NCBI GenBank assembly: GCA_964016885.1
Contig: OZ024756.1
Span: 7,006,001-7,070,000, forward strand
Length of the DNA stretch: 64,000 nucleotides
DNA from: Eledone cirrhosa
Taxonomy: Eukaryota
Reading direction: 5' to 3'
Positions 6,896 through 58,323 of the stretch are shown here, one piece after another. The first letter of the stretch is position 1. The number at the start of each line of letters is the position of its first letter. A program made the position numbers and the translations under genes. Under the pieces are notes generated by a model. It was not told where the DNA came from. It ran no database searches and saw only the letters and a list, made by a program, of their open reading frames with translations.

Positions 6896-6920
<25 letters not shown>

Positions 6921-6926
<6 letters not shown>

Positions 6927-7624
6927 ATAAATTAACGGAGGCATAGGCCGTCGTTATTCCCTGTAAATAATGTGCTCAAAGGGGAAGAGATCCTGAGCCC
7001 TTTAAAATATAATATGTTGAGAAGGTAACACACCAGAGAGAGATATATAGTGCATTATCAATAATACAGGGAAAAAACCACCAGTGTATGGCATCTATAA
7101 CCTATGAAAGGCAGACTATAGACACGATAATTAAAAATATAAATTAAAGCGTAAATAAATACCTCTATAACTATATAACACACGTACATATCCAAAGATA
7201 TGTTTCACCAGAAAATTTGTTGAAAGAAATGGTAGTCTCGGTTCATCAGCGTGTGCAAGGCCATACATTTCAGACAACACTAAGAGAATTTTACAATTGA
7301 CTGTCCAGCTACACGTGGGAGAGAGAAGTCACAGCGTGTTTAAGGGCAGTGAACCAGTGGCCTCTGAGAGACGAACTGCTAGAAAGGGCAGCCCAAAGCC
7401 ACTCAGAGAAGTGTGCTCAACCAAACAGAGATAGGAGAGGCTGTTATTAGGAGCGAAATATCACGATAAATTAACGGAGGCATAGGCCGTCGTTATTCCC
7501 TGTAAATAATGAGCTCAAAGGGGAAGAGATCCTGAGCCCTTTAAAATATAATATGTTGAGAAGGTAACACACCAGAGAGAGATAATGCACTATATATCTC
7601 TCTCTGGTGTGTTACCTTCTCAAC

Positions 7625-7632
<8 letters not shown>
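6921..7632 (-). mobile_element. Non-coding PLE-type / retrozyme-like unit: 539-bp period, about 125-bp direct redundancy, about 50-bp inverted end
   Basis: 6921-7045 repeated at 7460-7584; 7581-7632 is the reverse complement of 7008-7059; (TA)n flanks; internal hammerhead. Confidence 0.8.
7179..7255 (-). ncRNA. Canonical type I hammerhead ribozyme
   Basis: Minus strand CACACG-CTGATGA-ACC..GGT-GAAA-CATATC tttg GATATG-TA-CGTGTG; all three stems pair. Confidence 0.88.
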
Positions 7633-7680
<48 letters not shown>

Positions 7681-7683
<3 letters not shown>

Positions 7684-7875
7684 CGAAGGAAATGTGGTAA
7701 GGAACTAGGTGGACCATAACGCACCAAATAACTCAATACTTAGGGTAGTAGAGTGGGTAATAGGACCGAGTAGGACCCCGACGGCTGAGCTCAAGCCGCT
7801 TCGACGGCTAATTCTGGACTCCAGAATTAGCCGTCGAAATGGCTTGAGCTCAGCCGTCGGGGTCCTACTCGTTCC

Positions 7876-8248: not shown

Positions 8249-8292
<44 letters not shown>

Positions 8293-8333
8293 CAATATTA
8301 AATAAATGGAAACTATATTTATAAAACCATATT

Positions 8334-8399
8334 TATTTCATTATATATATTTCAGGGATATCATATTAACAATATGCTATGCCTTCCTCAGACAAAATA
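8334..8399 (-). ncRNA. Type I hammerhead ribozyme in inverted pLTR
   Basis: Reverse complement of 8811-8876. Confidence 0.72.
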
Positions 8400-8810
8400 C
8401 AATATAAACAGTTTTATAGATAAATAGATTCGACATACCGTAACAGCATCGACTTGCATTTGAAAAGGTTGATTTGGTAGTGAAAAAATTGTACACAGAG
8501 AGAAAGAAAGAGAGAAAAAAAAATATATATATGTATCTATCTCTATTTCCTCTCTCTCTATATATATATATATCTCTTTCTGTTTCTTTACATGAAGTTC
8601 TTCTCTTTATCTATCTTTCCATCTCTCTATTTTGTTCCATGCATTTCTTCTTTTTCTTCTTTTTCTTCGTTTTCTGTCTTTCTTTCCTTTTTTTTCTCTC
8701 TTTCTTTCTCTCTGTGTACAATTTTTTCACTACCAAATCAACCTTTTCAAATGCAAGTCGATGTTGTTACGGTATGTCGAATCTATTTATCTATAAAACT
8801 GTTTATATTG

Positions 8811-8876
8811 TATTTTGTCTGAGGAAGGCATAGCATATTGTTAATATGATATCCCTGAAATATATATAATGAAATA
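8811..8876 (+). ncRNA. Type I hammerhead ribozyme in 5' pLTR
   Basis: TATTTTGT-CTGAGGA-AGG..CCT-GAAA-TATATA-TA-ATGAAATA; stem I pairs with G-U wobbles. Confidence 0.75.
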
Positions 8877-9054
8877 AATATGGTTTTATAAATATAGTTT
8901 CCATTTATTTAATATTGTAAATATACTCCAAATATTTGTCGAGTGCTTTTATATAAGTTATAAATATTTACTAGTTGTAACCCAACAATTTAAATATAAC
9001 TTTCCATATATCTTGCTCCAATACTGTTGAGCGCTTTATATTATAACTGGAAAA

Positions 9055-11268
9055 ATGGAATTCTTTAAGATTACTTCCTCTTTAAAAGACATACCTCTAC
9101 CTAGAAACAAAGACTTTATAAAACAATTAATAGATAAATCTGACTCTTTTATAAGGAGAATCAGGTGGCGAGCATTCCACTTTGATAAATCTAATACAAA
9201 CGAAAATGTCTCGGACTTAAACAAAGTTTTCAAATCTAAAAGAAATCCACCCCCTAACAAACTTTTATCTGACTTTGAAAACGATATAATTTCTATCATA
9301 CAAGGGGTCAAATTCAAGAGAAACTTCAAAGGCCAGGAATATCTGAAAGGCATTAAGGATAACATTGAGAGCTTAGAGAGAACTGAGAAGATCTTGGTGA
9401 AATCTGACAAGACCAACAACCTCTATGGAGTGCAGAAAGACATGTATAATGGCCTCATACTGAAAGAGCTGAGGAAAAAGTACAAGGTAGCAGATAAGGC
9501 CGAGCTTGAGAAAATGAATGTCGAAGCATCTTGTATAATGCACGAGTTGGAAATTGAGAACAGAACACAACCTTTCGTGCCCAGGAAACCGAAGATCAAT
9601 ATGAAAGATCACAAGCGGAATTTTGAAAATGACCTGCCAGTTAGATTGATCGCACCATCAAAATCGGACCTGGGCAAATTAAGCAAAAACATTCTTGACA
9701 GGGTGATACAAAAAATTAAGAACTTGGATTGTTTATCTAACCTGAGCTTGTGGAAGGGAACTGGAGAGGTTGTTGAGTGGTTTAAGCAAATTAAATATAA
9801 CAATAATAATAAGTTTATTCAACTTGATATAGCTAACTATTATTCTTCTATTACCCCTAATCTACTAAATAAGGCACTAAATTACGCATTCAAACATACT
9901 TACCTAACTAGCAATGAAATGCATATTATATTATCGGCTAGGAAAACTTTGATAGAAGTTAATGACCAACTATGGACCAGAGCAGATAGAGATAGCAATT
10001 TTGACATTACTATGGGATCATCCGACTCAGCCCAGGTAACTGACCTTGTGGGCTTATTTTTAATCAATTCGCTACATAGGAAAATACCCGGTACTACCGG
10101 AGGTTTATATAGAGACGACATGCTTTTACTTATTGATAATAATAACTCTGAACTAAATAGAAAATGTAAACAAATTACACAATTTTTTAATTACTTTAAT
10201 CTTAAAATAGAAATTGAGAACAACCATAGAATAGTCAATTTCCTAGATATAACATTAAATCTCAACACATGTCTTCACTATCCTTTTCACAAGTTGAATG
10301 AAAACTTAAACTATGTAAACTTTAACTCTAACCACCCCAGATCTGTCAAAAACACTATAGTAAACTCTGTTCAAAAGCGTATCTCTAGGATCTCGTCGAA
10401 TAGAAAGATTTTCGACGAAAAAGCCCAATACTACAATGAAGCATTAGCTAGAGCAGGATATGCTGATAAGATTGTGTACATAGATAATGATAGACAAACT
10501 AAACAATGTAACAACTTTTTTAATTACGGCAACATCCTTAACAACTATAATAGAAAGCATTACAATAATTCCAAAGGCCAAAAAAGAAGTAGAACTAGGA
10601 ACATAATTTGGTTTGCCCCCCCTTTCTCACTAAACATTAAAACCCACATCGCTAAACTATTTTTTAAAGCTCTTGATAATCGCTTCCCTAGAACACATAG
10701 ATATCACTCAATTTTCAATAGACATACAATTAAATTAACCTACTCATCCACCAAAAATTTAGTACAAAATATCAATAGAATAAATAATAGGAACTTAAAA
10801 CCTAGTGATAATAGCATAAATAATATACAAGTTAACAAATGTAACTGTAGAGATAGATCTAAATGTCCGTTAAATAACAACTGCTTAGTTAAAAATATAG
10901 TATACAATTGTAATGTTAATACTGACTCTAATTCTTTTAACTACGTCGGTTCCACATCGACGGAATTTAAACTTCGCTATAATAACCACAAGAATTCTTT
11001 CACAGATCCAAGCAAAAAATCTTCAACGGCACTATCAGGCGTACTATGGCAACTTAAGCTAGATAACGTTAGATATTCGACGGCTTGGAATATAGTCTCA
11101 AGAGGGATTCCTTTTAATTCATCCTCTGAGACATGTGACCTCTGCGCAGAGGAGATATTCTTTATACTAAAATCTAAAAATTCCCTTAATCTACGGACAA
11201 ATTTATTCAGTTGTTGCAAACATAGATTAAACTCAACATTTAAATATAAATTTAAATTTAAAATGTAA
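9055..11268 (+). CDS. Penelope-like element polyprotein (reverse transcriptase + C-terminal GIY-YIG endonuclease), Naiad-like, 737 aa, uninterrupted
   Basis: RT motifs KINMKDHK, PVRLI, QLDIANYYSSI, ITMGSSDS, YRDD, NFLDITL; Cys linker CNCRDRSKCPLNNNC; GIY-YIG-like NIVY...NYVGST, FKLRYNNH, CDLCAEE, CCKHR. Naiad assignment is from recalled motif style, not a phylogeny. Confidence 0.93.
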   Translation: MEFFKITSSLKDIPLPRNKDFIKQLIDKSDSFIRRIRWRAFHFDKSNTNENVSDLNKVFKSKRNPPPNKLLSDFENDIISIIQGVKFKRNFKGQEYLKGIKDNIESLERTEKILVKSDKTNNLYGVQKDMYNGLILKELRKKYKVADKAELEKMNVEASCIMHELEIENRTQPFVPRKPKINMKDHKRNFENDLPVRLIAPSKSDLGKLSKNILDRVIQKIKNLDCLSNLSLWKGTGEVVEWFKQIKYNNNNKFIQLDIANYYSSITPNLLNKALNYAFKHTYLTSNEMHIILSARKTLIEVNDQLWTRADRDSNFDITMGSSDSAQVTDLVGLFLINSLHRKIPGTTGGLYRDDMLLLIDNNNSELNRKCKQITQFFNYFNLKIEIENNHRIVNFLDITLNLNTCLHYPFHKLNENLNYVNFNSNHPRSVKNTIVNSVQKRISRISSNRKIFDEKAQYYNEALARAGYADKIVYIDNDRQTKQCNNFFNYGNILNNYNRKHYNNSKGQKRSRTRNIIWFAPPFSLNIKTHIAKLFFKALDNRFPRTHRYHSIFNRHTIKLTYSSTKNLVQNINRINNRNLKPSDNSINNIQVNKCNCRDRSKCPLNNNCLVKNIVYNCNVNTDSNSFNYVGSTSTEFKLRYNNHKNSFTDPSKKSSTALSGVLWQLKLDNVRYSTAWNIVSRGIPFNSSSETCDLCAEEIFFILKSKNSLNLRTNLFSCCKHRLNSTFKYKFKFKM

Positions 11269-12668
11269 TATATTTAGTTTGATTTATAATTATATGGGAA
11301 ACTAGCCGATAAATCTTTGATTCTCTTTTTATAAATTTTTGATTCTCTTTTTATTCTTTTTATTTTTATTTTATTTTATTTTTATTTAAACATTCTTCAT
11401 GAAAAATTAAGCTACCCTAAAAGTTGATGCTCCAAATATTTCGAATAAACGTTACACTAGATAAACTTCTATATTAAATATAAGAACACATGTAGACCAA
11501 ATTGGGCATCCTAAACTTTTTGAAATGATCTTTGCTAGATGCGATTTGATAGATAATTTTTGGCTTTATCTGTTTTTCGACTCTGATGTTTATAATGAAC
11601 TTGGCAATATATTGTCAATTAATTTTGAAGGGTTGATCTTTGTGGTTTATCTTATTTTATTTTTATTATTGTAGTATTTCCTAATATTTTTATTTTTAAT
11701 ATTTTTAATATGTAAATTTTTTAATATGTAATATTTTTAATATGTAATATTCTTTCGTAATATTTTTTAGTTTTCTATTTTATTATTACTTATTATTATT
11801 ATTGTTATTTTTAGTTTTGTTTCTGATATATTTTTATTTTTATTAGTATATTGAAATCTGCTCTATTTTTGCTTGATAGATAATCTTGTAGAGTAGAGAC
11901 AGAAATAGTAATATTGACTCTATATACACATATATGTATACATAAATTTTTATACCACATTGAGAATGTTTTCCGTGAGCCTAGGGTTTGCAGAGTTGAT
12001 CATGTAGATTCACATAGATGTTTGTAATTATCACATAAACATATGAATTTTTTTAAAAAACTAAACATAAGATCATTAATTTTCACACATTGTGGATACA
12101 TGTCTCATTCAGGAATACTGATATTTACAATGTAGTGGCTGGTTTTGTAAATACTAATACCTCTACATTAAAACAGAGGTTTTTACGCCTCGCCTGTGTC
12201 TGGTTATTTTTAAATTTTTTTCTCTCTCTATTTTTTCTCTCTCTATATTTTTTCTCTATATATATAACAGCTGGTTTCTCTCCATATATCTCCCTTACAT
12301 TAATACTAGAGCTAAATAAATAAATAAATAAATAAATGTATCATTGATACGTTATTCAACAGACGTCCCACTACCTAGTTTTCTATATATATGTATCTAT
12401 CTCTATTTCCTCTCTCTCTATATATATATATATATCTTTCTGTTTCTTTACATGAAGTTCTTCTCTTTATCTATCTTTCCATCTCTCTATTTTGTTCCAT
12501 GCATTTCTTCTTTTTCTTCTTTTTCTTCGTTTTCTGTCTTTCTTTCCTTTTTTCTCTCTTTCTTTCTCTCTGTGTACAATTTTTTCACTACCAAATCAAC
12601 CTTTTCAAATGCAAGTCGATGTTGTTACGGTATGTCAAATCTATTTATCTATAAAACTGTTTATATTG

Positions 12669-12734
12669 TATTTTGTCTGAGGAAGGCATAGCATATTGTT
12701 AATATAATATGCCTGAAATATATATAATGAAATA
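12669..12734 (+). ncRNA. Type I hammerhead ribozyme in 3' pLTR
   Basis: CTGAGGA, stem II AGGCATA/TATGCCT, GAAA, palindromic stem III, UA cleavage site, stem I TATTTTGT/ATGAAATA. Confidence 0.8.
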
Positions 12735-12863
12735 AATATGGTTTTATAAATATAGTTTCCATTTATTTAATATTGTAAATATACTCCAAATATTTGTCGA
12801 GTGCTTTTATATCAGTTATAAATATTTACTAGTTGTAACCCAACAATTTAAATATAACTTTCC

Positions 12864-12950
<87 letters not shown>

Positions 12951-12952
12951 TA

Positions 12953-13240
12953 TTAAAGTGTTAAACAATATTCAATGATTATGTCAAAGAATGAGTTTTA
13001 CAGTAGATTGGAAGCACTCAACGGGAAAAAAAATTATTTTCTGGAGTTATTAATATTAAAATGTAAGTTTTAATAAAATAGACTAAAATGACTACCTTGA
13101 TTAAATCTTAACCATTTAACATCTCACAGTATGTCATGCATCATTATATTTTGTCTGATGAGGACGTACTGTTGTACATACGAAATATGTATAATAAAAT
13201 GTAATTGATCAAAAGAACATCTATTTTATTAATACTTATA

Positions 13241-13248
<8 letters not shown>
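12953..13248. mobile_element. Fold-back pLTR fragment with hammerhead (13144-13204, +)
   Basis: ATATTTTGT-CTGATGA-GGACGTAC tgtt GTACATAC-GAAA-TATGTA-TA-ATAAAATGT; 13049-13081 inverted against 13221-13248; same family as 44181-44247. Confidence 0.65.
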
Positions 13249-13292
<44 letters not shown>

Positions 13293-13494
13293 GTAATTCC
13301 GTCGGAAAGGTCCAGGAAAAGAGAGTGCTCTATGTATGTATATATATATATCTATATATGCGTGTGCGTATGTATGCGTGTATATTTGTGTGTATGTATG
13401 TGTATGTGTGTATATATATATGTGTGTGTGTATATATATATATGTGTGTTTGAGTATTTATGTGTATGTGTATGTATGGAAATATATATGTGTG

Positions 13495-13543
<49 letters not shown>

Positions 13544-13673
13544 ATGTGTGCATGTGTGTTTATCTACTTTTATATTGATTCTTGTTCCTTTCCTTCTTCC
13601 TTTTCCAGCCTCACATTCATATATATTATATTTTTGTTTTTAAAATGCACTGTCAATAAATACACCAGGATTT

Positions 13674-13734
13674 TTTAATTCTGATGACTGAAAGCAAATT
13701 TTGTTTGCTTTCAAGAAACCACTGGTAAATGAAA
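13674..13734 (+). ncRNA. Type I hammerhead ribozyme
   Basis: CTGATGA, stem II TGAAAGCAAA/TTTGCTTTCA, GAAA, CCA-c-TGG, TA; a degenerate relative lies at 7995-8056 (CTGAATGA..GAAACC..GGTA, same TTTATTACATAA tail). Confidence 0.72.
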
Positions 13735-13786
13735 TAATTATCTTATGTTGTTTATTACATAACTATATATATATAAATATATATTT

Positions 13787-14043
13787 AAGCAAGGAGATAT
13801 TTAATTTGTTGGTAATTCCACAAATATATTTATAACAGATTCGAAGCACTCGACAATTTTTCTGGAGTATAATATCAATGATATTAATAAATGGAAACTA
13901 TATTTATAAAACCATATTTATTCTATTATATATATTTCAAGGGTACCAAAACTTTGGTACCCTCTCATCAGATAAAATACAAAATTTGTTTTATAAATAG
14001 TGCCATAACCAGGAATGAGACCTTAACGGTTCGAGTTCCGTTT

Positions 14044-14079
<36 letters not shown>

Positions 14080-14200
14080 AAACGGAACTCGAACCGTTAA
14101 GGTCTCATTCCTGGTTATGGCACTATTTATAAAACAAATTTTGTATTTTATCTGATGAGAGGGTACCAAAGTTTTGGTACCCTTGAAATATAATAAATTT
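13787..14200. mobile_element. Head-to-head solo pLTR pair around a (TA)n spacer; hammerheads at 13919-13979 (-) and 14144-14198 (+)
   Basis: About 13930-14046 inverted against 14077-14192; CTGATGA-GAGGGTACCAAA/TTTGGTACCCTT-GAAA; terminus resembles the pLTRs of the two large PLEs. Confidence 0.8.
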
Positions 14201-14254
14201 GAAGACTAAAATCCAAGCAGCGATTCTTTGCTTAAACTTTAATCTGTTATTTTA

Positions 14255-15310: not shown

Positions 15311-15599
15311 TATCCATCTGTCTGTCTATTTATATATATATATATAACTCCCGATCTCTTAGTCTATGTATTTATCTATATACATTTATATATATATATA
15401 TATAATCACATATATTTTTATTGTTTGACCAGATGCTTTGTTTAACCACCATCTCAGTGTGTTTGGCCCTTAACGTATGTTGTAGCTCTGATTCATATGA
15501 ATCATCGAGCGCTTGCCACACATCTCGGAAGTTGTTTTTCGTTAATTCCTGAGCTGAAATACGATTCTCGCTAATTTATATTTATATATATATATATAT

Positions 15600-16452: not shown

Positions 16453-16514
<62 letters not shown>

Positions 16515-16521
<7 letters not shown>

Positions 16522-16920
16522 AGATCAAAAGATGGTTAAAGGAGTTCCATATATTTTATTATGCGCATTTCAAAAACAAACATCATCAGGCAATAATATT
16601 TGTGTTTTCATCAGATAAAACAGGAGAACATGATATGAAGGCTAAAAGACACTTGTTGATAGTGCAGTTTTAAATCAACATAACTGCACTATCAACAAGT
16701 GTTTTTTAGCCTTCATATCATGTTCTCCTGTTTTATCTGATGAAAACACAAATATTATTGCTTGATGATGTTTGTTTTTGAAATGCGCATAATAAAATAT
16801 ATGGAACTCCTTTAACCATCTTTTGATCTTATATTATGCATACTCCAGTCCCACAAACTGTAGAGTGCTTCTTATCCGATATCTGCATTGCTTTATTGTA
16901 CTACAATAAAACTCACCCCC

Positions 16921-16922
<2 letters not shown>
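16515..16922. mobile_element. Fold-back pLTR element with hammerheads at 16552-16622 (-) and 16729-16799 (+)
   Basis: TGTTTTAT-CTGATGA-AAACACAAA..TTTGTTTTT-GAAA-TGCGCA-TA-ATAAAATA; near-perfect inverted arms; TA flanks. Confidence 0.85.
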
Positions 16923-16973
<51 letters not shown>

Positions 16974-22286: not shown

Positions 22287-22375
<89 letters not shown>

Positions 22376-22376
<1 letters not shown>

Positions 22377-22895
22377 AAAGAATAGAGGTGTAACACACAA
22401 GTTATTATATATTGGTAAACGGAATAGAAAATGCTGACAAATTGTTCACAGTTGAAAAATGGTTTAATTAGGAATAAAAGAGTATTACTGATTGTATGGG
22501 TTAGTATTCAGTTGTGGTTTTAAGTTTTTAAGTTTTTACCGGTTGCGCATTTCTAAATGCTTTTCAAAAATAATTTTGAGATAGAGTGTCCGTGCTGTTT
22601 GCTCTGATCTGATTAGTTTTGGGAATTCTACCTGTTTTTATGTTAAAAAAATGGCTCCAGCGTTATTTTTGTGTTGCAAAAATGCTTGTGGTCAAAACAA
22701 TTTTGATTGGTCGGTAGAGGTCATGTGAATGTAAAAAGTTGATTTTGCGCCAATACTGTTTTTATGTTAAAATGTTAGAAAAGTGGCTCCAGCAAAAATT
22801 ATTGGTCAAAACAATTTTGATTGGTCGGTAGAGGTCATGTGGATAAAATATTGGTTTTGCGCCAAGATTGAGAAATGACTCTTTCACAACAAATA

Positions 22896-22954
<59 letters not shown>

Positions 22955-23023
22955 TAGTAGGAGTAAGGTGTTCGATGCTGCGACAATAGCCACCAGCGAT
23001 GTGTGTCAAATGGCTATTAAGAT

Positions 23024-23065
<42 letters not shown>

Positions 23066-23202
23066 ACATACACACAGCAGAGTCATTCGAAGGTCAAAAG
23101 ATATTTTTCAGCTTTTGTCTTATACGGAGAAGTGCGTGTGTGTGTGTGTGTGTGTGTATAAGTCTCTTTGTATGTTGATGTACGCGTGTGTATGTGTTTG
23201 TG

Positions 23203-23245
<43 letters not shown>

Positions 23246-23411
23246 GTGGGTGGACCAGTATTTTTTTCCCCCTGGTAAAATGGTGTACATTATTCGATTT
23301 TTTCAGTATAATCGGTTCTCTTAATAGAACATCAACAATCTTAACAATAAAAGGTGTGAAATGATATTCACTATATATATATACACACACACACACATAT
23401 ATATATATGTT

Positions 23412-23442
<31 letters not shown>

Positions 23443-24590
23443 AACATATATACATACATATATATGCACATATATTTTTTTGTATTGCACCATAGAGCAT
23501 GTGTGTTTACGTGTGTCATTGTGTTTATATGTGGGTAGAGATGTGTGCTGATGTAGGTATGTATGTTGACGTGTGTATGTTGTGGGCTCGTCTTAGGGAG
23601 AAGTGTTTAGACGGGGTCCGTATTTGTTAATGAAGTAAGATTCCTTGCTGATGCGCTGGGTGTGGGTGGCATTATCTTTAAATTTGTAGAGGGGAAAGAT
23701 TCTGAAGTTGGGATGATTTTGGGCGGCGCAGGTATCAATGTGTTCACTCAGTGGTATTTTCCTGTATTCCCGTATTTTAATTTGGGATCTATGGACAGTC
23801 ATGCGTTGGCGGAGGCTGTTTTTGGTCTGGCCTATGTATTGTTCTCGACAACCTGAACAAGTTAATACATATATTAAATTTTCCGATGCACATGTGAAAT
23901 TGTGTTTTACTATAAAACGTTGTCCATCTTTGAAATAGAATTCCGAACCCTCTATTAGGTTGATGCAAATGCCACAGTTGGGTCTATCGCATTTTTTTAC
24001 TGTGGGTTTCGTTGTTGTGGTTGGCAGTACTTTGGCATGTGTTAAGATGTTTTTCATTGACTTGGATTGTCTTTTGCTCTTTATGATATCGTGTGTTCGT
24101 AGAATTTGGTTCATTCTATGGTCCTTTTCAATACAGGGATGTTCTGGAGGATGGTGTCAAAGGCCTCATTGTTGGGGGGGTTGTGTGTGGAGATGTATGG
24201 AAGAGCTTTTAGTTTTGGTTGATTTACTTTAGGGTGTCTAAGGTCTAAAGTCTTGGCGCAAAATCAACTTTTTACATTCACATGACCTCTACCGACCAAT
24301 CAAAATTGTTTTGACCACAAGCATTTTTGCAACACAAAAATAACGCTGGAGCCATTTTTTTAACATAAAAACAGGTAGAATTCCCAAAACTAATCAGATC
24401 AGAGCAAACAGCACGGACACTCTATCTCAAAATTATTTTTGAAAAGCATTTAGAAATGCGCAACCGGTAAAAACTTAAAAACTTAAAACCACACCTGAAT
24501 ACTAACCCATACAATCACTAATACTCTTTTATTCCTAATTAAACCATTTTTCAACTGTGAACAATTTGTCAGCATTTTCTATTCCGTTTA

Positions 24591-24598
<8 letters not shown>
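22376..24598 (-). mobile_element. 5'-truncated PLE (Neptune-like) with inverted terminal duplication
   Basis: About 22405-22752 is the reverse complement of about 24255-24598; endonuclease ORF lies between them; (TA)n flanks. Confidence 0.8.
23593..24114 (-). pseudogene. PLE C-terminal zinc finger + GIY-YIG endonuclease fragment
   Basis: KCDRPNCGIC, FTCASENLIYVLTCSGC, YIGQT, LRQRMTVH, PLSEH, KESYFI, LN. Confidence 0.88.
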
Positions 24599-24655
<57 letters not shown>

Positions 24656-24884
24656 TCCTCACTTTCTGTTGCTTCACAATTTTGTTTGTTTACCCTCGCG
24701 TCCCCTTTATTTACGTGTCCCAACGACTTTTTTTAGCCGTTGCTCGCACCAACCGGAGGTATATGGTCTTTAAAGCGATGAAATGCCTATGATGGTTGGA
24801 AGATCACTGATGAAGGACAAACTTTTTTCATATGTAACCCGTTTGCAACACCACAGCGCCCTTATTATCATATATATATATATA

Positions 24885-25310
24885 ATATAGGAGGTGAGTT
24901 TTATTGTAGTACAATAAAGCAATGCAGATATCGGATAAGTAGCACTCTACAGTTTTGTAGGACTGGAGTATAAATAATATAAGATCAAAAGATGGTTAAA
25001 AGAGTTCCATCTATTTTATTATGCGCATTTCAAAAACAAATATCACCATGAGATGACATTTGCGTTTTCGTCAGATAAAATAGGGAGACATGATATGAAG
25101 GTTAAAAAACACTTGTGAATAGTGCAGTTTTAAATCAACATATGTTGATTTAAAACTGCACTATTCACAAGTGTTTTTTAGCCTTCATATCATGTTCTCC
25201 TGTTTTATATGATGAAAACACAAATATTATTGCATGATGATGTTTGTTTTTGAAATGCGCATAATAAAATAGATGGAACTCTTTTAACCATCTTTTGATC
25301 TTATATTATA
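24885..25310. mobile_element. Second copy of the 16.5-kb fold-back family; hammerheads at 25012-25082 (-, CTGACGA) and 25201-25271 (+, core mutated to ATGATGA)
   Basis: High identity to 16515-16922 in the opposite overall orientation. Confidence 0.82.
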
Positions 25311-25460: not shown

Positions 25461-25465
<5 letters not shown>

Positions 25466-25652
25466 CGAAGAAGGTGTGGTAAAGAACCAGATGGACCATA
25501 ACGCACCAGAGTACTCAATACTTAGTGTAGTAGAATGGGTAATAGGAAAAGTGTGACCCCGACGGCAGAACTCAAGCCGTTTCGACGGCTATTTCTGGAC
25601 TGAAATAGCCGTCGAAACGGCTTCAGCTCTGCCGTCGGGATCACACTTTTAG
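25461..25652. mobile_element. Short fold-back family, copy 2
   Basis: Same tail and GAAACGGC..GCCGTC inverted arms; TA flanks. Confidence 0.75.
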
Positions 25653-35235: not shown

Positions 35236-35424
35236 TTTTTAAATATAGGAAATTGTTCAAGACCTCGACGGCAGAGCTCAAGCTGTTTCGACCTCTGTCG
35301 AAAAGGCTTGAGCTCTGCCGTCGGGGTCTTGAACAATTTCCTATTAGCCACTCTACTACTCTAAGTATTGAGTACTCTGGTGCGTTATGGTCCAACTGCT
35401 TCCTTACCACACCTCCTTCGTTAT
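35236..35424. mobile_element. Short fold-back family, copy 3 (opposite orientation)
   Basis: Same tail on the other strand; arms joined at GAC-ctct-GTC. Confidence 0.75.
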
Positions 35425-35549
35425 CTTTTTATATATATATATATATCGTATATATATATATATTTATATATATATATCGTATATACATATATATATATAT
35501 ATATATATCGTATATATATATATATATATATATCGTATATATATATATC

Positions 35550-35589
<40 letters not shown>

Positions 35590-35613
35590 TATATATATAT
35601 ATATATATGTATC

Positions 35614-35653
<40 letters not shown>

Positions 35654-35711
35654 TATATATATATATATATATATATATATCGTATATATATATATATATA
35701 TATATATATCG

Positions 35712-35741
<30 letters not shown>

Positions 35742-35746
<5 letters not shown>

Positions 35747-36850
35747 GTTATCACATACATAAAATTAAATTAAATTAAATCAATGATACATATATGTGTT
35801 GCAACTGTTCACTTTTAAGCTCAATGAAGAATTAATAAGTTAAAATCAAAAGATCAGAGCATTATATCATAAAACGTGTCTATAGAATCAATCAGATATT
35901 AAAATATATACTATTTCTTCCTCTAATCAGCATAATTAACCATATACATAATCAAATCCAGCAAGCTTTAAGAGTAAATTTTCTAACTGGGAAATCTCCG
36001 ACAAATAATTGACCGCAGCCAGTTCGCGTTAACTCCGTTCCATTATTTATCAAATACTTCGGCAGCATGCAGAATCCGATCAAACATATCGTCAACCGCG
36101 CGTAATTAGTAGTAAAATTAAACTTAGAAGAAATGCGCACATACCGTAATTATATCTCGAGCATGGTTTCTTCCTTGTTTAGGACATCCAAATAATATGG
36201 ACTGTCCTGAGTCAGGATTTTCTTCAGGAGACAAACTCAGAAATAGACATTTAATTTCTCGGACAGACCCGCCAAATTTAGATTCAAAAATGGCTAGGAT
36301 CGCTATGTAGCTGTGTACCAACCAGAGAGAAAGCGTGTGATTGGTCGCTTACGGCGGGTAGGCATGCTGCTAGAAAGCGCAGCCATATATCGCCAAATTT
36401 AATCTCAACCGATAGGGAGATTATCAAATATAGAGGTTATCACATACATAAAATTAAATTAAATTAAATCAATGATACATATATGTGTTGCAAGTGTTCA
36501 CTTTTAAGCTCAATGAAGAATTAATAAGTTAAAATCAAAAGATCAGAGCATTATATCATAAAACGTGTCTATAGAATCAATCAGATATTAAAATGTTACT
36601 ACTAATTACGCGCGGTTGACGATATGTTTGATCGGATTCTGCATGCTGCTGAAGTATTTGATAAATAATGGAACGGAGTTAACGCGAACTGGCTGCGGTC
36701 AATTATTTGTCGGAGATTTCCCAGTTAGAAAATTTACTCTTAAAGCTTGCTGGATTTGATTATGTATATGGTTAATTATGCTGATTAGAGGAAGAAATAG
36801 TATATATTTTAATATCTGATTGATTCTATAGACACGTTTTATGATATATA
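35742..36850 (-). mobile_element. Non-coding PLE-type / retrozyme-like unit: 689-bp period, about 160-bp direct redundancy, about 255-bp inverted end
   Basis: 35742-35905 repeated at 36432-36594; 36595-36848 is the reverse complement of 35863-36115. Confidence 0.8.
36154..36232 (-). ncRNA. Type I hammerhead ribozyme
   Basis: GTCTC-CTGAAGA-(TCCT..AGGACA..TGTCCT..AGGA)-GAAA-CCATGC-TC-GAGAT; one stem III mismatch. Confidence 0.65.
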
Positions 36851-36862
36851 CATATATATATC

Positions 36863-36946
<84 letters not shown>

Positions 36947-36988
36947 TATATATATATATATATATCGTATATATATCGTATATATGTC

Positions 36989-37028
<40 letters not shown>

Positions 37029-37166
37029 TATATATATATATATATCGTATATATATATATCGTATATATATCGTATATATATATATATATCGTATATATA
37101 TCGTATATATATATATAATATATATATCGTATATATATATATATCGTATATATATATATATATATC

Positions 37167-37210
<44 letters not shown>

Positions 37211-37270
37211 TATATATATATATCGTATATATATATATATATATATCGTATATATATATATATATATATC

Positions 37271-37345
<75 letters not shown>

Positions 37346-37393
37346 TATATATATATATATATATAATATATATATCGTATATATATATATATC

Positions 37394-37431
<38 letters not shown>

Positions 37432-37451
37432 GATATATATATATACATATC

Positions 37452-37499
<48 letters not shown>

Positions 37500-37513
37500 C
37501 GTATATATATATC

Positions 37514-37600
<87 letters not shown>

Positions 37601-37803
37601 GATATATATATATATATATTATATATATATATATATATATCGTATATATATATCGTATATATATATATATATATATACGATATATATATATATATATGAT
37701 ATATATATATATACGATATATATATATATATATATAAGATATATATATATATCGAATATATATATATATATATATATCGAATATATATATATATATATAT
37801 ATA

Positions 37804-37838
<35 letters not shown>
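36850..37838. repeat. (TA)n array punctuated by CG
   Basis: TATATCGTATATA units; a second array at 35430-35730. Confidence 0.9.
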
Positions 37839-37842
<4 letters not shown>

Positions 37843-38279
37843 AATGTTATATTAAATTTGTTGGAATTCAACAAGCTTAAACATTTTATAACTGATATAA
37901 AGCACTCAACAATTTAGTTGAGTAAATATTCAATATATTAATAAACTATCAATATGCATAATATTGTCTTTACTTCTTCTTCTCTCTTTCTCTTTCTCTT
38001 TTCTTCTCTCTCCCTTTCACTATTCTTTCTCTCTCCACTTCAATAATTTTTCTCTTTCCCTCTCAATATTTTTCCTCTCCCCCTTTACATCTCCTCTTCT
38101 TCCAACAGTTTAATTTAAATAAACTGTTATCTTTTCAATTTTTCTGCCACTCATTTGCATACTCACTCATAACTTTGTATCACCCTCAATAAAATATTAT
38201 CTACACCATCCAGCGAACTTCAACCGTTAAGGTTGTCTTTTTTCCGGGTATGTCAATATTTATTTATAAAACAAATCTG

Positions 38280-38343
38280 TATTTTATCTGATGAAAGCGC
38301 ACCATAATTTGCCTTGGTTGCCCTTGAAATATATAATAAAATA
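38280..38343 (+). ncRNA. Type I hammerhead ribozyme, 5' pLTR of second PLE
   Basis: TATTTTAT-CTGATGA-AAG..GCACCA/TGGTTGC..CTT-GAAA-TATA-TA-ATAAAATA. Confidence 0.8.
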
Positions 38344-38524
38344 ATTATGGTTTTATAAATATAGTTTCCATTTTTTAATATATTGAATATTTACTCCACT
38401 ACGCTGTTGAGTGTTTGTATCAGTTATAAAATTGTTAAGCTTGTTGAATCCCAACAAATTAAATATAACCTCTGCATATATTTAGCTCCTTTATTGTTGA
38501 GCACTTTAAATTATAACTGATTAA

Positions 38525-40790
38525 AAATCGAATTCTTTAAGATCTCTTCTTCTATAAAAGACATACCTTTACTTAGGAATAAGAACTATCTTAAACAACT
38601 TATTGAGAAATCGGACTCGTTTATAAGAAGACTTCGATGGCGTGCTTTTCATTTTGATAAAAAATCAGATGGAAAAGAAAATATATCCAACTTTGATAGG
38701 ATCTTCAAATCCACCTGCCAACAAATTACTAATGGAATTTGAAAATGAAATTATTTCAATCATACAAAACATTAAATTTAAGAAAAACCATTTTGTAGGC
38801 CAGGATTACCTCAAAAGTCTTAAAAATAATATAGAAAATGTTGAAAGAACTGAAACAATTCTTGTTAAATCTGATAAAACCAACAATCTTTACGGAATGC
38901 AAAAGGACGAGTATAATAATTTTATATTGAAGGAATTAAGGAAAAATTAGAAAAGATCAACCAATGATGACCTTGAAATAGTGAAGCTTCTAACATAATA
39001 GTGAAGCTTCTAACATAATAGTGAAGCTTCTAACATAATAGTGAAGCTTCTAATATAATGCAAAAATTAGGCATCGAAAATAGGACTGAACCCGTCATAC
39101 CTAGGAAACAAAAATTAATTTGAAAGACCACAAAAGAAATTTTGAAATAGAATTACCAGTTAGACTTATTGCACCATCTAAATCGGACCTTGGCATAGTT
39201 AGCAAAAATATCTTAGATAGAATCAAATCGCAACTTAAAGAAATATCTTACTTAAAATTATGGAATGGGACTAAGGAAGTTATAGACTGGTTTAAGGACA
39301 TAAAATATAAGCATAACAATAAATTCATTCAATTGGATATTGCTAATTATTACTCATCTATCACTCCTAATTTACTTAATAAAGCCCTTACATACGCATT
39401 TAAATATACTGATTTATCTAGCGATGAAATGCACATCATCTTACGTAAAACCATAATTAAATTTAACAACCATCTTTGGACTAGAGCAGATAGGGATAAC
39501 AATTTCGATATTACTATGGGGTCATCGGACTCGGCACAATTAACGGATCTTGTGAGGCTTTTTCTTAACAATACTTTACATAGAAAAATACCAGAGTTAA
39601 CCGGTGGTTTATATCGTTATGATATGCTATTGCTTATTGAAAATAATATTAATTGTGAAATCAATAGGAATAGAAAATCAATAATACAATTTTTAATTGC
39701 GTTAATCTTAAAGTAGAAGTAGAGAATAATTATAAAATAGTTAATTTTTTAGATGTAACATTAAACCTTAATACTGGTCTTTATTATCCATTTCATAAAA
39801 TAAATGAGAATTTAAACTATGTTAACTTTAATTCCAATCACCCGAGATCCGTTAAAAGCACTATTGTAAATTCCGTACAGCAACGTATTTCTAGAATTTC
39901 AGAGAATAAAAATACATTTGAAGATAAGGCACAATATTATAACGAAGCTTTAAGTAGAGCAGGCTATAATAATGAAATTAAATACATTGATAATAAAGAT
40001 ATGCCAATTAACCGTAATTATAATTATAATTATAATTATAATAAGAAACCTAGTACTAACTCTAAAATTAAAAAACGAAATAGAACTAGAAATGTATTCT
40101 GGTTCGCTCCCCCTTTCCAATTAAGTATTCAAACTGCAATAACTAAACTATTTTTTAAAGCTCTAGATAATTGTTTTCCCGAGACACATAGGTATCACTC
40201 AATCTTTAATAGACATACACTTAAACTATCATATTCTGCCACTATAAATTTAGCGCAGAATCTAAATAGAATTAATAATAGAAACTTAAAACTTAACCAG
40301 AATAGCATTAATACCTCTAGCAACATCCAATATAATGATAGTGTTCCCAATAATATAAATTCCGATAAATGTAATTGTAGAAATAAATCTAACTGTCCTT
40401 TAAATAATAACTGTTTAGTTAAAAATGTAGTATACAATTGCAATGTCAAAACCAATGATAATTCCTTTAACTATATCGGCTCTACTTAGACAGACTTCAA
40501 ATCTCGTCTGAATAACCATAAATGTTCCTTTACGAATATTGGTAAAAAATCTTCAACTTCTATATTCAACTTATTATGGAACTTAAAATACAAGAATATA
40601 AACTATTCTTTATCTTGGAATATTGTCTCCAAAGCACCATCCTAACAGCTCTATCCAAATTTTGCAGCCTATGCTTAGAAGAAATATTCTTTATACTAAA
40701 ATCTAAGAACTATATTAATTTGCGTAATAATTTATTTAGTTCTTATAAACATCGTTTAAATTCAACTTTTAGATATATATATATATAACA
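38525..40790 (+). pseudogene. Frameshifted PLE RT/GIY-YIG ORF
   Basis: Fragments ILVKSDKTNNLYG, KDHKRNFEIELPVRLIAPSKSDLG, QLDIANYYSSI, ITMGSSDS, YRYD (mutated YRDD), CNCRNKSNCPLNNNC, YIGST; stops, frameshifts and four tandem copies of a 20-mer at 38981-39060. Confidence 0.9.
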
Positions 40791-42294
40791 TGTAATATAT
40801 GGGCAATCTTCCTTACATAACGTTTTCTATATCCAAACACCTATAATCTCATCCCTCAGATTATATCTATATATGATTCAAGAATTTAATATAATTCTAA
40901 CCTTAATAACTTCCTAAATATATAAAATACACTTATTAAATTTTTTATTTACTCCTTAAAACCTTTACTTTCTAATATTTCTACTTCATAAATATACTTT
41001 GTATTATTACACTTATCAATCCTACCTCCAAAAAATATATCATAACCTTTCTATATGACTACTTGAAATTCTTTAAAGAAAAGGTTTTGAAAATTCTAAA
41101 AATTTCCTTTGAAAGACTTTCTGAAAGTTTTGGTAAAATTTTTGAAAGATCATTTTGAAAGATATGGAAAAAACATTATTTTCATATCTTCCAATATTTT
41201 TTATATCTTCCAATATTTTAAACATTGTTAATATTTATGTATTTTCATATATACCCAAATATTTATATTTATGTGGAATAATGTATGGGTTATGTTTTAA
41301 TTATATTTTAAGATGAATTTTTATAACTTTTTATAACTTTTTATAACTTCTTATAACATTTTAAAGATATCTTTATCTATTCTTGGAGTCATTTGAGTTT
41401 TTTTTAAATCCCTTTTAACTTCCTTTAAACTTCCTTATTGTTTTTCTAATCTCAATTTTTATAGTCTTAATTTATAGTCTGAAATTTTAATATATACATC
41501 TAATTATGTACTTATTCCTTTGTAAACTCTCGTAAATTTTCGTAATTTTTGTAATTATTTGGATGTTTAAGATTTGACATAACTATTAATAAATTCTGGC
41601 TAAATATAATTTTGCCAAACTTACTTTAATCAAATAAACTATACTAGATTTTTTCCAATGTAAAATACTATACATTTAAATAATTTATAATCTATAACAT
41701 AACATACCCATCTAAACCCATATATTATTAATACATCTTAATATATTTTAAATACTTCTTTTTGTAATATATCCTATTTTAATTAAATTTTAATTACATT
41801 TTTAATTAAATTCTAACAATATTCTTAAATCTTAACAATTTTTTATCCTTAATTTAATTGTTTAACTTATCATTATAAATATAAACATAGCATAATGAAC
41901 GTTATATTTACGTTCTGCGTATTCATCTATGTAAAACTTATTTCTTCGTTCGCTTCGCTTCTCTTCACTATCACTATGCATACTCTTGTCTTTCCTTCTT
42001 CTTCTCTCTTTCTCTTTTCCTCTCTCTCCCTTTCATTATTCTTTCTCTCTCCTTTTCAATATTTTTTCTCTCTCCCTCTCAATATTTTTCTCCCTCCCTT
42101 TTACATCTCCTATCTTCCAACAGTTTAATTTAAATAAACCGTTGTTTTTTCAATTTTTCTGACACTCATTTGCATACACACTCATAACTTTATATCACCC
42201 TCAATAAAATAGTATTTCTACTATCCAACGAATTTCAACCGTTAAGGTTGTCTTTTTTCCTAGTATGTCAATATTTATTTATAAAACAAATCTG

Positions 42295-42360
42295 TATTTT
42301 ATCTGATGAAAGCGCACCATAATTTGCCTTGGTTGCCCTTGAAATATATATAATTAAAAA
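42295..42360 (+). ncRNA. Type I hammerhead ribozyme, 3' pLTR of second PLE
   Basis: Same core as 38280-38343; stem I partly eroded. Confidence 0.7.
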
Positions 42361-42400
42361 ATTATGGTTTTATAAATATAGTTTCCATTTATTAATATAT

Positions 42401-42471
<71 letters not shown>

Positions 42472-44140: not shown

Positions 44141-45112
44141 TTCAAAATATTAACAAAATAGATATTCTTGTGATAAAGTATATTTTATTATACATATTTC
44201 AGAGGTACTGAGTTAAGTTCAACAGTACGTCCTCATCAGATAAAATAAGATGATGCATGACATACCCTGACATAGTAGATGGTTAAGATTCAGTCATGGT
44301 AGTGAGTAATATATGACAAAACTCAATATTTATACCTTAATATTGAGAACATGAGAAAAATATATAATACATACAATAGAGAGGGTGCGTGTAATACAGC
44401 TTTAAAAATACATGGCATCAATATAACTGCTAAAAAAATGTAAATTATTTAAGAAAGAGGAAAGAAAGGACAGCATAGAGGAAGAAAAAAGAAACAGCTG
44501 ATGGGATAATATAGTTAGTAGGTGCCTCGAAAGACAAAAGAGAGATGATTAAAGAGAGAGAGAGAAAGGGGAATAATGTATGTTCAATTCATAGACAATT
44601 ATCCATATATACAATATATATCTAAACTTATTTGGTTGATCGTTAATATTCAAAATATTTAATTTACGTTAGTTTAGAGTAATGAATAATATTTTAGGTT
44701 TTAAAAGTTAATAGGTAACTGTATTAATATTATAGAATACTATCAAGTTTAATTTCTAAAATTCAAATTTTATGAAATCAAATTTAAAGGATTTACAAAC
44801 ACGAGAAAGAAAATATAATGTTTTTATAACCCCACGAAGGTAAACTTTACAAAAATTATTTATAATATTGACAACAGTTTATATAATATAATTTATAAAA
44901 TAATTACAGTTATAATTATTAAAGAATTTATTATTAACAATTTGAGTGCCTAAAGGATCAACAGGCCTTATAATTAAACTTAAAGAAGTCTGAATTTTAA
45001 ATTACATATATGTGTTAATTAAAAAATATACAAGGATTATATTATCTAAAGCCTTAAGGTGATACCTTTCTAATATACATAACAATACAATAATACAATA
45101 TAAGATATGGAT
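44135..45112 (-). mobile_element. PLE 3' end (AT-rich UTR + pLTR) with hammerhead at 44181-44247
   Basis: TATTTTAT-CTGATGA-GGACGTACTG..CAGTACCTCT-GAAA-TATGTA-TA-ATAAAATA; TA flanks. Confidence 0.7.
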
Positions 45113-46230: not shown

Positions 46231-46414
46231 GTTATTCCGGGTTGAGTCAGAGGTAACCACAGTAAGTAAGGTACTCAATACATTGCAGAGTATAAAAGTT
46301 TTAATATAGATGAGATTCTACAGGACTAGAACTGTTTCATTCTTTAGAAATCATCAGGATGATTTCTAAAGAATGAAACAGTTCTAGTCCTGTAGAATCT
46401 CATCTATATTAAAA

Positions 46415-46422
<8 letters not shown>
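46230..46422. mobile_element. Fold-back element with hammerhead core at 46315-46361 (-)
   Basis: Arms 46290-46355 and 46358-46422; CTGATGA-TTTC taaa GAAT-GAAA-CAG..CTG-TA; related fragment at about 26775-26810. Confidence 0.7.
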
Positions 46423-47757: not shown

Positions 47758-47767
47758 TAAATATATA

Positions 47768-48030
47768 TAAGCAAAAGAGACATTTAATTTGTTGGTAATT
47801 CAACAAATAAATATGTTTATAACTGATTCGAAGCACTCGACAGTTTTTCTGGAGTATTATATCAATGATATTAATAAATGGAAACTATATTTATAACACC
47901 ATATTTATTCTATTATATATTTCAAGGGTACCAAAACTTTGGTACGCCCTCATCAGATAAAATACAAAGTTTGTTTTATAAATATTGACATGTCCAGGAA
48001 GAAGACCTTAACGGTTCAAGTTTATCCAGG
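47768..48030 (-). mobile_element. Solo pLTR (same family as 13787-14046) with hammerhead at 47906-47964
   Basis: High identity to 13787-14040; CTGATGA..GTACCAAA/TTTGGTAC..GAAA-TATA-TA. Confidence 0.8.
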
Positions 48031-50069: not shown

Positions 50070-50618
<549 letters not shown>

Positions 50619-55052: not shown

Positions 55053-55739
55053 ATACAAATATAAATTATCGAGATTCGCATTTCGGCCCACGAAATAACG
55101 AAAAACAACCTCCGAGATGTGAGGCAAGTGCTCAATGATTCAGATGAACCAGAGCTATAACAAACGTTAAAGGCCAAACACACTGAGACGATGATTAAAC
55201 AATCATTCGCATAGCCAAAAAAACGATCAAGTAATTCGGGTATTGAAAATTTACCCGGACCCCTGGAACGTTGGTAAAATCCAGTACTTGGGTTTCTGCG
55301 GCTCCTAAATCAAGTACCGTCCGCTTACATAAATAATGTCAGGCTTCTGGTAAGATGATTGAACAAGGAAGCTACTTTCTCAACAGGTTTTAGTTCAATG
55401 TTAATACAAGGACTGACTATTGCTGACACCACGTGGGGATAGGCAAGGGAGGCAGCCCCTATATCAGGCGAATAAATTCAGTTGTTTATATTTTTGCAAG
55501 AATGCAAAAATATCACAAATCGAATAGAGTTCTCAACAGAAGGGTTAAAATTAACATAAACAATTCATCAGTCAATAGAATCAACTAAAAAATCAAGAAA
55601 ATTAACTGGTCAATAGCTAGAGTCTGGAGATTAATACAAACATAAATGATCGAGATTCGCATTTCGGCCCACGAAATAACGAAAAACAACCTCCGAGATG
55701 TGAGGCAAGTGCTCAATGATTCAGATGAACCAGAGCTAT
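55053..55739. mobile_element. Terminally redundant non-coding unit (581-bp period) in TA tract
   Basis: 55053-55158 repeated at 55634-55739; no complete hammerhead found by eye. Confidence 0.55.
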
Positions 55740-57470: not shown

Positions 57471-58172
57471 TGTAGCAAAGCAAACTTTGACTTTCATACT
57501 TCTGATGTCGATAAAATAAATTACCAGTAATGCACTGAGGTCGATAAAGCGACTTTCTCCTTCCCTCAAATTGCCAGCCTTTTGCCTAAATCAGAAATCG
57601 TTTATAATCAATTAAATACCAAATACTATATCAAATATATTTATCGAATCACTATTTTCATGAATGCTATGTGTGTGCAGCAAGGACTTGAATATATACC
57701 AGTTATTGCAAATAGACAAACACAGCACACACTAGGGAGATGCCGTTCTTTTAACTTACCTATAATATATATGGCTTTCAATGTAGAAATTCAAAACATT
57801 CTAGAAACAGTCTACTAGTTAAATATGCTAAAACCTGTTACCTGTATTTGATATGAAAAGATCATTTCCATGGAAGCATAAAATCAAAACGATCCTTTGA
57901 GATTAAAATTGTGTTATGTTCTCTTTTCTAACTATTAAACATCTTATTCGTATATCTAGCTATCAGCTCTGAAGGTAGTCATTTCCCTGCTCTCGTCTCA
58001 GGGGATCAACTCCAAAAATGAATTTACTTTTCCAGCCATCTCTCTATTTGTAAGCATAGCTCAATCTAACAACATATAAAGTCCCTTGCTACCCTAGACA
58101 AGTAGAACATATATATATATATATATATATATATGAATAAACGAAAGATAAATACGTTATATCATCTCTATT

Positions 58173-58247
58173 TATTTCATCTATATTTCGAAGATGTTTT
58201 GCTTTGTGTTATACATAAAAATTTACATGTCCTCTTCAGAAAAAATA
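58173..58247 (-). ncRNA. Type I hammerhead-like motif
   Basis: TATTTTTT-CTGAAGA-GGACATGT..ACATCTTC-GAAA-TA-TA-GATGAAATA, inside a TA-flanked insert. Confidence 0.55.
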
Positions 58248-58323
58248 CATAGGAAATGTATAATTTTTTCCATAATATACTGGTAGAAAATTGAGCTGGA
58301 CAGATCGGTAACCACCAAACATA

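Follow-up and report, generated by a model that had tools for sequence, protein, structure and literature searches.

Retrozymes have been proposed to be non-autonomous derivatives of Penelope elements (PMC7229834; preprint 10.64898/2026.07.22.740005), and axolotl hammerheads that combine a weak stem III with a palindromic loop cleave better as dimers (PMC7229834). How Penelope-like elements choose an internal start for reverse transcription, and why they carry tails and inverted ends, is an open question, for which one in vitro system has been described so far, that of Poseidon PAc of Anolis (Frangieh et al. 2024, PMC11167929). In this system, the reverse transcriptase (RT) begins synthesis at two internal sites, which delimit the tail, and depends on RNA located 3' of these sites, the AT-rich target is cut on both strands, and hammerhead cleavage is dispensable for insertion (PMC11167929). 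The parts of the animal retrozyme papers available to us describe no start-site signal (PMC7229834; preprint 10.64898/2026.07.22.740005).

We analysed a 64-kb stretch of the genome of Eledone cirrhosa (the window), which contains a hammerhead-bearing repeat, unit B, and a comparison unit, unit A (Table 1). The best reading of unit B is a non-autonomous Penelope derivative of the non-LTR retrozyme type. More specifically, it appears to be a non-coding hammerhead repeat that was likely copied into a TA microsatellite by a Hydra-clade RT-endonuclease, with predicted cDNA starts just 5' of two bulged hairpins; we assign this reading a probability of about 0.7.

Table 1. Coordinates of unit B, its parts and flanks, the comparison unit and neighbouring elements in the window.
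Feature	Position	Strand	Basis and remarks
Non-coding monomer of unit B, 689 nt	35743..36431	- (hammerhead strand)	Self-comparison, hammerhead scan
Direct redundancy (pseudo-LTR-like partial second monomer)	36432..36601	-	98.2% over 171 nt; 170-nt repeat
Inverted arm (reverse complement of 35863-36119)	36592..36848	+	99.2% over 257 nt; ends in (TA)n
Left target, (TA)n/(TATATCG)n tract finishing in (GA)7 at the junction	35430..35745	.	Sequence
Right target, (TA)n/(TATATCG)n tract	36849..37840	.	Sequence
Type I hammerhead, damaged in this copy	36154..36232	-	Descriptor scan; public family reads
G-U-rich rod-like fold, ~280 nt, directly 3' of the hammerhead cut	35876..36160	-	Predicted, -80.4 kcal/mol, z -3.77
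Bulged hairpin 1 (AAUCUC-CC-UAUC-GG-UU-GAGAUU)	36401..36422	-	~9 nt 3' of first element end; MFE
Bulged hairpin 2 (GCUC-UGA...UCA-UU-GAGC)	35819..35860	-	2 nt 3' of inverted-arm end site; copy at 36508-36549; MFE
A/B block (GGCUGC-S-CUUUCUAGCAG)	36361..36384	-	Predicted to form the tip of a longer stem-loop in A and B
Comparison unit A	6919..7633	-	Intact-looking type I hammerhead, cut 7185; hairpins 7454-7415 and 6998-6974
Candidate helper, full-length Hydra-clade Penelope-like element	8285..12869	+	ORF 9058-11268; hammerhead; hairpins 8925 and 9015 at its two end sites
Second Hydra-clade element, broken	37840..42402	+	Hairpins 38393 and 38485

Layout and target site of unit B

An earlier note on this DNA had described a unit, a direct redundancy and an inverted end at 35742..36850, and self-comparison showed that this layout is real, with a unit of 689 nt, a repeat of 170 nt and an arm of 257 nt. 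The locus consists of 1.25 head-to-tail units plus the inverted arm, contains only one hammerhead and is the single copy of unit B in the window. All features of a Penelope-like insertion are present, namely a partial tandem (pLTR), an inverted 5'-truncated copy and a tail equivalent of 120 nt, and inspection of the junctions indicated that the inverted arm was joined via ~3 nt of microhomology. The flanks agree with the preference of the Hydra clade for insertion into (TA)n; the (GA)7 at the left end could reflect stuttering of the RT or a compound repeat that was already present. Because the arms differ by only about 1% in self-comparison, the insertion is considered to be young.

ORF analysis recognised no ORF remnant in unit B, and an ORF with RWK-like, DKT, CxCX5C and C-terminal GIY-YIG features is absent from it. 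A tRNA-derived SINE was also considered and rejected because there is no tRNA-like head: ARAGORN found no tRNA gene in the window, A/B boxes were examined by eye, and Rfam gave no relevant match (none at the gathering threshold over the window and, in unit B, one irrelevant match with E=2.6). The SINE-like repeats of the window presumably resemble octopod SINEs.

The rod-like fold of unit B is strand-specific. None of 200 shuffles was as stable, and the plus strand reached only -33.0 kcal/mol; for the circular unit, the predicted energies were -174.9 (minus) versus -123.1 kcal/mol (plus). Family variants in the rod keep the pairing at six of eight paired positions, which is no better than expected for transitions.

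Hammerhead ribozyme and family of unit B

The minus-strand hammerhead that had been noted earlier at 36154-36232 does contain a type I core, above chance expectation, but stems II and III are unclosed in this copy. Its parts are stem I (36232-36228/36158-36154), CUGAAGA (36227-36221) and GAAA (36170-36167), with the cut position at 36159, and in the descriptor scan the core shows the type I characters (CUGANGA and GAAA, an NUH triplet and an open stem I). Stem II of this copy starts with an A.A mismatch, a base pair of stem III is broken (CCAUGC), and the triplet is CUC. A hammerhead core with a stem I of at least 5 bp was obtained in 7 of 2000 shuffles, and one that also had the near-palindromic 6-nt stem III in 0 of 2000. 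The same scan revealed many further hammerheads in the window.

Nine public sequencing runs, none of them recorded as RNA, matched unit B, and four of these (X1, X4, X5 and X7) were compared; X7 is a RAD-seq run. Sequences aligning to unit B comprised 537 contigs in X1, 2364 reads in X7, 19 contigs in X4 and three contigs in X5, and relatives that keep the ribozyme core occur under two further organism labels. The best-matching runs share 0.52 of the sequence words and may therefore come from a related species. Reads of X7 differ from this copy at 36161 (99/102), 36159 (91/101) and 36223 (112/117), and the contigs of X1, X4 and X5 agree with X7 at 36159/36161. The hammerhead form of the family is CUGAUGA...GAAA-CCAUGG-UA, in which stem III (CCAUGG) is weak and palindromic and the triplet is GUA, so that stem III, which is broken in this copy, is restored in family reads. 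In these sequences, the ribozyme of the family has a canonical appearance, whereas that of this copy appears damaged. Stem II varies by subfamily, with a 2-nt gap in 48 of 80 reads and a change at 36220 in 21 of 79, in unphased data and among the 40 variants listed out of 146.

Two differences of this copy from the family, at 36159-36161, lie at the first and the third position ahead of the ribozyme cut. An RT that passes a ligated or jumped junction would traverse this place, and the differences may represent a scar or chance. Because the arms differ by ~1% while the hammerhead carries several changes, the template of this copy may already have been damaged at insertion. Having a single, damaged hammerhead, this copy probably represents a dead end.

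Contig 9 of X4, which has another organism label, covers 36337-36431 and then 35790-35946, representing a head-to-tail join across the unit end and start, and three contigs of X1 turn TA-rich at 35863; both junctions of unit B therefore recur. This contig and the layout together give a head-to-tail, non-coding monomer with a type I hammerhead, as is characteristic of non-LTR retrozymes. A decayed, internally deleted remnant or a satellite derived from a Penelope end, not propagated through its own RNA, would be compatible with the damaged hammerhead and the single copy in the window. The small difference between the arms, indicating a young insertion, is at odds with it, as are the numbers of X1 contigs and X7 reads, the relatives that retain the ribozyme core under two more labels, the strand-specific fold and the lack of a recognised ORF remnant in unit B, and we consider such an origin highly improbable.

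Bulged hairpins at insertion ends in the window

Comparison of each element end with its internal copy revealed a bulged hairpin, which is located on the hammerhead strand 3' of the junctions and has the form RCUC-stem-loop-stem-UN-GAGY, i.e. an inner stem-loop that is preceded by RCUC and followed by a 2-nt bulge, with U as its first base, and by GAGY. Both ends of units A and B lie 2-14 nt 5' of such a hairpin. In the window, there are 24 strict matches, whereas 20 shuffles gave 4.55 on average (range 1-7), and 17 of 31 repeat-arm ends abutting a microsatellite are followed by a hairpin at a distance of 2-15 nt in the corresponding internal copy (random positions, 59/3000); these counts are partly circular because the motif was first defined on window sites. 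The 17 ends correspond to 14 distinct sites after merging of redundant copies, and the 14 ends that lack a hairpin include inner junctions, a SINE, tandem repeats and a Neptune-like end.

Inner positions 1-3 are Watson-Crick paired in 15, 12 and 11 of 16 window hairpins, with C-G/U-A swaps, when aligned by sequence anchors only. A model-fitted alignment of 21 window matches contains 13 double-sided changes (0/500 shuffles), a kind of count that relatedness inflates.

Hairpins 1 and 2 of unit B have pair probabilities of 0.91-0.95 and 0.77-0.93, respectively, in the whole unit, and the variant in X4 alters, within hairpin 1, the loop alone. Both are without the 3' RC seen in others. A covariance model with five pairs, built exclusively from foreign hairpins (10 of 13, those of similar length), ranked hairpin 2 first (8.0 bits, E 0.13) and hairpin 1 second (6.9 bits, E 0.24) among nine matches in unit B, on the right strand, neither match being significant by itself. 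The model search of the whole window gave 21 matches at E<10, which include neither hairpin of unit B nor the second hairpin of unit A; in the circular fold of unit A, pair probabilities of the hairpins are 0.26-0.37 for outer and at most 0.09 for inner pairs. Among all non-self tiles of the window, the end site of the broken Hydra element is the best match to the first end of unit B (score 37, 3/3000 shuffles; next tiles 35). Unit B is regarded as a divergent carrier of the hairpin, for which position and rank speak more strongly than the score.

Several other repeats of the window have related structures. A unit of 581 nt that has a direct repeat of 100 nt and lacks a clear hammerhead is found at 55056-55736 and 15438-15582, and small palindromic inserts without a detected hammerhead, in which the arm ends just before a hairpin, are found at 7683-7875, 25465-25650, 35245-35421, 46295-46418 and 50199-50617. 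Short hammerhead-bearing Penelope end-pieces are located at 13100-14250, 16500-16930, 24880-25310, 44150-44400, 47760-48020 and 58100-58300; they have a palindromic 6-nt stem III (TATATA, TGCGCA or TATGTA), and several of them have the bulged hairpin.

The main rival to an RNA start is a function of the hairpin at the DNA level, in cDNA or target, where it would signal cutting or resolution by the GIY-YIG endonuclease; the element class would stay the same. The tail of Hydra-clade elements has been attributed to endonuclease-mediated resolution (PMC8557442), and the Drosophila virilis endonuclease needed the tail for cleavage (PMC11167929). At 55736, unlike in the other cases, the hairpin is in the copied orientation and begins exactly at the (TA)n junction. 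A simple start-site model does not predict this, and a DNA signal fits it at least as well. Wobble pairs (G-U versus A-C counts) do not clearly indicate which strand folds, the stems being mostly Watson-Crick, and are thus not decisive here. However, the hairpin lies just outside the copied sequence at the tabulated ends, as would be expected of a template-side signal, and the tail ends of Poseidon are measured RT start sites (PMC11167929). We therefore regard a DNA signal as unlikely.

Occurrence of the hairpin outside the window

The out-of-sample set consisted of 12 Hydra-like loci from five MAG assemblies, with related families included, and the strict hairpin was found in 10 of them. It is located 3' of 10 of the 25 foreign hammerhead matches but never 5' of one, and a single match has it on the reverse strand. 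In three loci (L007, L008 and L014), the terminal hammerhead copy enters (TA)n just where the internal copy enters the hairpin, the terminal copies stopping a few nucleotides short of it. Among unfiltered arm ends of the foreign loci, only 9 of 106 have the hairpin (background, 80/3000). Inner positions 1-3, aligned by sequence anchors only, are Watson-Crick in 17, 12 and 16 of 19 foreign hairpins, again with C-G/U-A swaps.

In the published Hydra consensi (PMC8557442, file S7), clean hairpins are visible by eye at the ends of three of six, namely past the 3' end in Hydra-2_Amil and Hydra-2_Ajap and, in two copies, before the ORF in Hydra-1_Ajap; the other three show, by eye, partial forms only. 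No hairpin stem was evident by eye at the 17 anchor matches within single lines of the available Naiad/Chlamys consensi. A search for Hydra relatives in viral contigs yielded 134 candidate stretches, of which none was confirmed.

The foreign loci L005-L016 are animal-type Penelope elements in bacterial MAG contigs, which are probably host contamination. In L005 (1-2535), 141-nt terminal repeats surround one whole Hydra-like unit with a hammerhead, two hairpins and an ORF, an arrangement expected from the assembly of a tandem array or a circle.

Full Hydra elements carry the hairpin on the coding strand. This position bears on the antisense-template model for Penelope inverted ends, in which the template would be the plus strand and the hairpin would be an RT stop or template-switch point. 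Self-priming on an antisense template has been argued for (PMC3846280), and stems that are mostly Watson-Crick could fold on either strand, but the coding-strand location, as well as the hammerhead and the rod fold with the lower circular energy of the minus strand, speak against a plus-strand template, which appears improbable.

Comparison with unit A and the shared blocks

The shared architecture that had been ascribed to the two units was borne out by self-comparison, the same three parts being present in both; those of unit A are a 539-nt unit (6919-7457), a 127-nt repeat and a 53-nt inverted arm. Their sequences are, as was also stated before, largely different, the whole-unit alignment being not above chance (80/500 shuffles). 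The longest match between them is 17/18 nt (7376-7393/36367-36384), and 18 nt with one mismatch occurred in 2 of 1000 shuffles; an alignment limited to ~150 nt 3' of the first end was reached in 15 of 2000. Because no alignment extends beyond these ~150 nt and the whole-unit value is at chance level, A and B were rejected as one family. Of the earlier picture of a diversified family of non-autonomous ribozyme elements with conserved cis signals, the non-autonomy and the cis signals are retained, but not the common family.

The two short blocks that had been proposed as shared fared differently: the 17/18-nt block beats chance and persists in family reads, whereas GATAGG(G)AGA, although present, is variable in its first letters among family members. 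Among the 40 variants listed out of 146, none falls within TGCTAGAAAG.GCAGCC; the leading C of the block (36367) is T in 364 of 511 reads. The region 36361..36384 is among the deepest-covered in X1 and X7. The first proposed fold register of this A/B block has a pair probability of 0.02-0.03 in this B copy and 1.0 in A. The GATAGGGAGA block corresponds to one arm plus the loop of the bulged hairpin in unit B, and the CTGCTAGAAAG block has no exact match in the 12 foreign Hydra-like loci.

Near-matches of the A/B block also occur on the minus strand at 61804-61820 and 61947-61963 (two and three mismatches; chance expectation, 0.16 for the window). A metagenome scan with the A/B block plus CTCAA returned four loci without window similarity, TA runs or a nearby hammerhead, which were taken as chance.

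An RT-binding site had been one of the functions suggested for the shared blocks, and positional and covariation support was indeed obtained, mainly for the bulged hairpin, which had not been named. The other suggestion was an internal promoter. The blocks would then act at the DNA level upstream of the hammerhead, and the hairpin position would be a by-product; they do lie upstream of the hammerhead on the hammerhead strand, pLTR promoters have been described for Penelope (PMC11167929, PMC3846280), and the CTGCTAGAAAG block, which does not belong to the Hydra hairpin, shows sequence conservation between the two units. A promoter, however, needs neither compensatory pairing nor fixed spacing to insertion ends, and ARAGORN detected no tRNA gene in the window. 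As an explanation of the whole pattern, it is very improbable, and an internal promoter is possible for the CTGCTAGAAAG block alone.

Hydra-clade neighbours and candidate helper

The candidate helper (8285-12869) has an open 736-aa ORF, 488-nt direct repeats, an inverted arm and three hammerhead copies. Its ORF has 27 homologues at 30-40% identity, one named homologue being from Argonauta. Both this element and the broken one (37840-42402) carry the RW, DKT, CxCX5C and CxxC motifs given for the Hydra clade, and a Pfam search gave no family for their ORFs; their assignment to this clade is suggested by these motifs. No helper has extended sequence in common with unit B.

A 5'-truncated Neptune-like element is located at 22373-24600, with a GIY-YIG ORF (23593-24156), a CxxxxCxxC linker, 345-nt inverted arms and a ~33-nt tail. 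Although its end looks similar, this element (~22373-24600) was rejected as a helper because no hairpin follows its second end. The window also contains a Pif1-type helicase fragment (PF21530; 47004-47549), which is probably Helitron-derived.

Proposed mechanism of insertion

The hairpin common to unit B and the Hydra elements suggests that unit B was mobilised in trans by a Hydra RT. The minus-strand RNA would be either a hammerhead-cut circle or a tandem transcript, both of which fit equally well. By analogy with Poseidon, the helper protein would bind this RNA through the hairpins and nick (TA)n. One target end would then pair with the AU-rich patch before hairpin 1 and be extended once round the unit plus 170 nt (859 nt), and the other would prime before hairpin 2 to yield the 257-nt inverted arm, after which microhomology would join the two cDNA products. 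The 'tail' of unit B would correspond to the 120 nt that separate the two start sites.

In a more general form, for and against which we see about equal odds, Hydra-clade Penelope RTs would read a portable bulged RNA hairpin of 18-45 nt that fixes the cDNA start. Two hairpins per element, one for each nicked strand, would explain the tail and the inverted end, and any RNA containing them could be inserted into (TA)n repeats.

A hairpin that is short, covaries and keeps an almost constant distance to insertion ends would allow a direct mutational test. In addition, a common cis signal would tie a retrozyme-type element to a specific helper clade, a link that the preprint (10.64898/2026.07.22.740005) proposed only from co-occurrence and pLTR similarity, and the hairpin could help to annotate non-autonomous partners of Hydra elements.

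Comparison with known elements

The element class is known, non-autonomous Penelope-derived retrozymes being in print, and unit B alone is an ordinary member. The hairpin is apparently an undescribed cis signal. It was absent from the literature searched, including a term search of PMC8557442, PMC3846280 and PMC12602865, and subscription papers, Repbase entries and picture-only supplementary figures could mention it; the terms hairpin, stem-loop and bulge do not occur in the main text of PMC8557442.

In Fig. S1 of PMC11167929, a bulged hairpin was not seen by eye in the PAc RNA. Poseidon PAc starts in an AC-rich stem-loop without target homology (PMC11167929), whereas unit B ends in AU-rich patches with (TA)n microhomology, before the hairpin.

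Like animal non-LTR retrozymes, unit B is a non-coding unit of low GC content with one type I hammerhead per monomer (PMC7229834; preprint 10.64898/2026.07.22.740005), and its weak stem III with a palindromic loop resembles that of axolotl HHR_Amex1 (PMC7229834). Its length of 689 nt is within the 51-972 range of the preprint but above the 170-400 nt of Cervera & de la Pena 2020 (PMC7229834). It differs from retrozymes in carrying a Penelope-type inverted arm and in being known here from DNA, not as RNA circles. Moreover, its 1.25 units and one hammerhead depart from the rule of Li, Clavereau & Pollet (preprint), according to which an active retrozyme has two or more consecutive units, each with a complete hammerhead.

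Compared with Hydra-clade elements (Craig et al. 2021, PMC8557442), unit B has no ORF, its hammerhead is located outside the redundancy, and the spacing of its end sites is 120 nt versus a usual tail of 30-40 bp. It nevertheless shares with them the (TA)n targets and the partial tandem plus inverted 5' copy, and these elements also possess canonical hammerheads and, in three of six new consensi, the bulged hairpin (PMC8557442).
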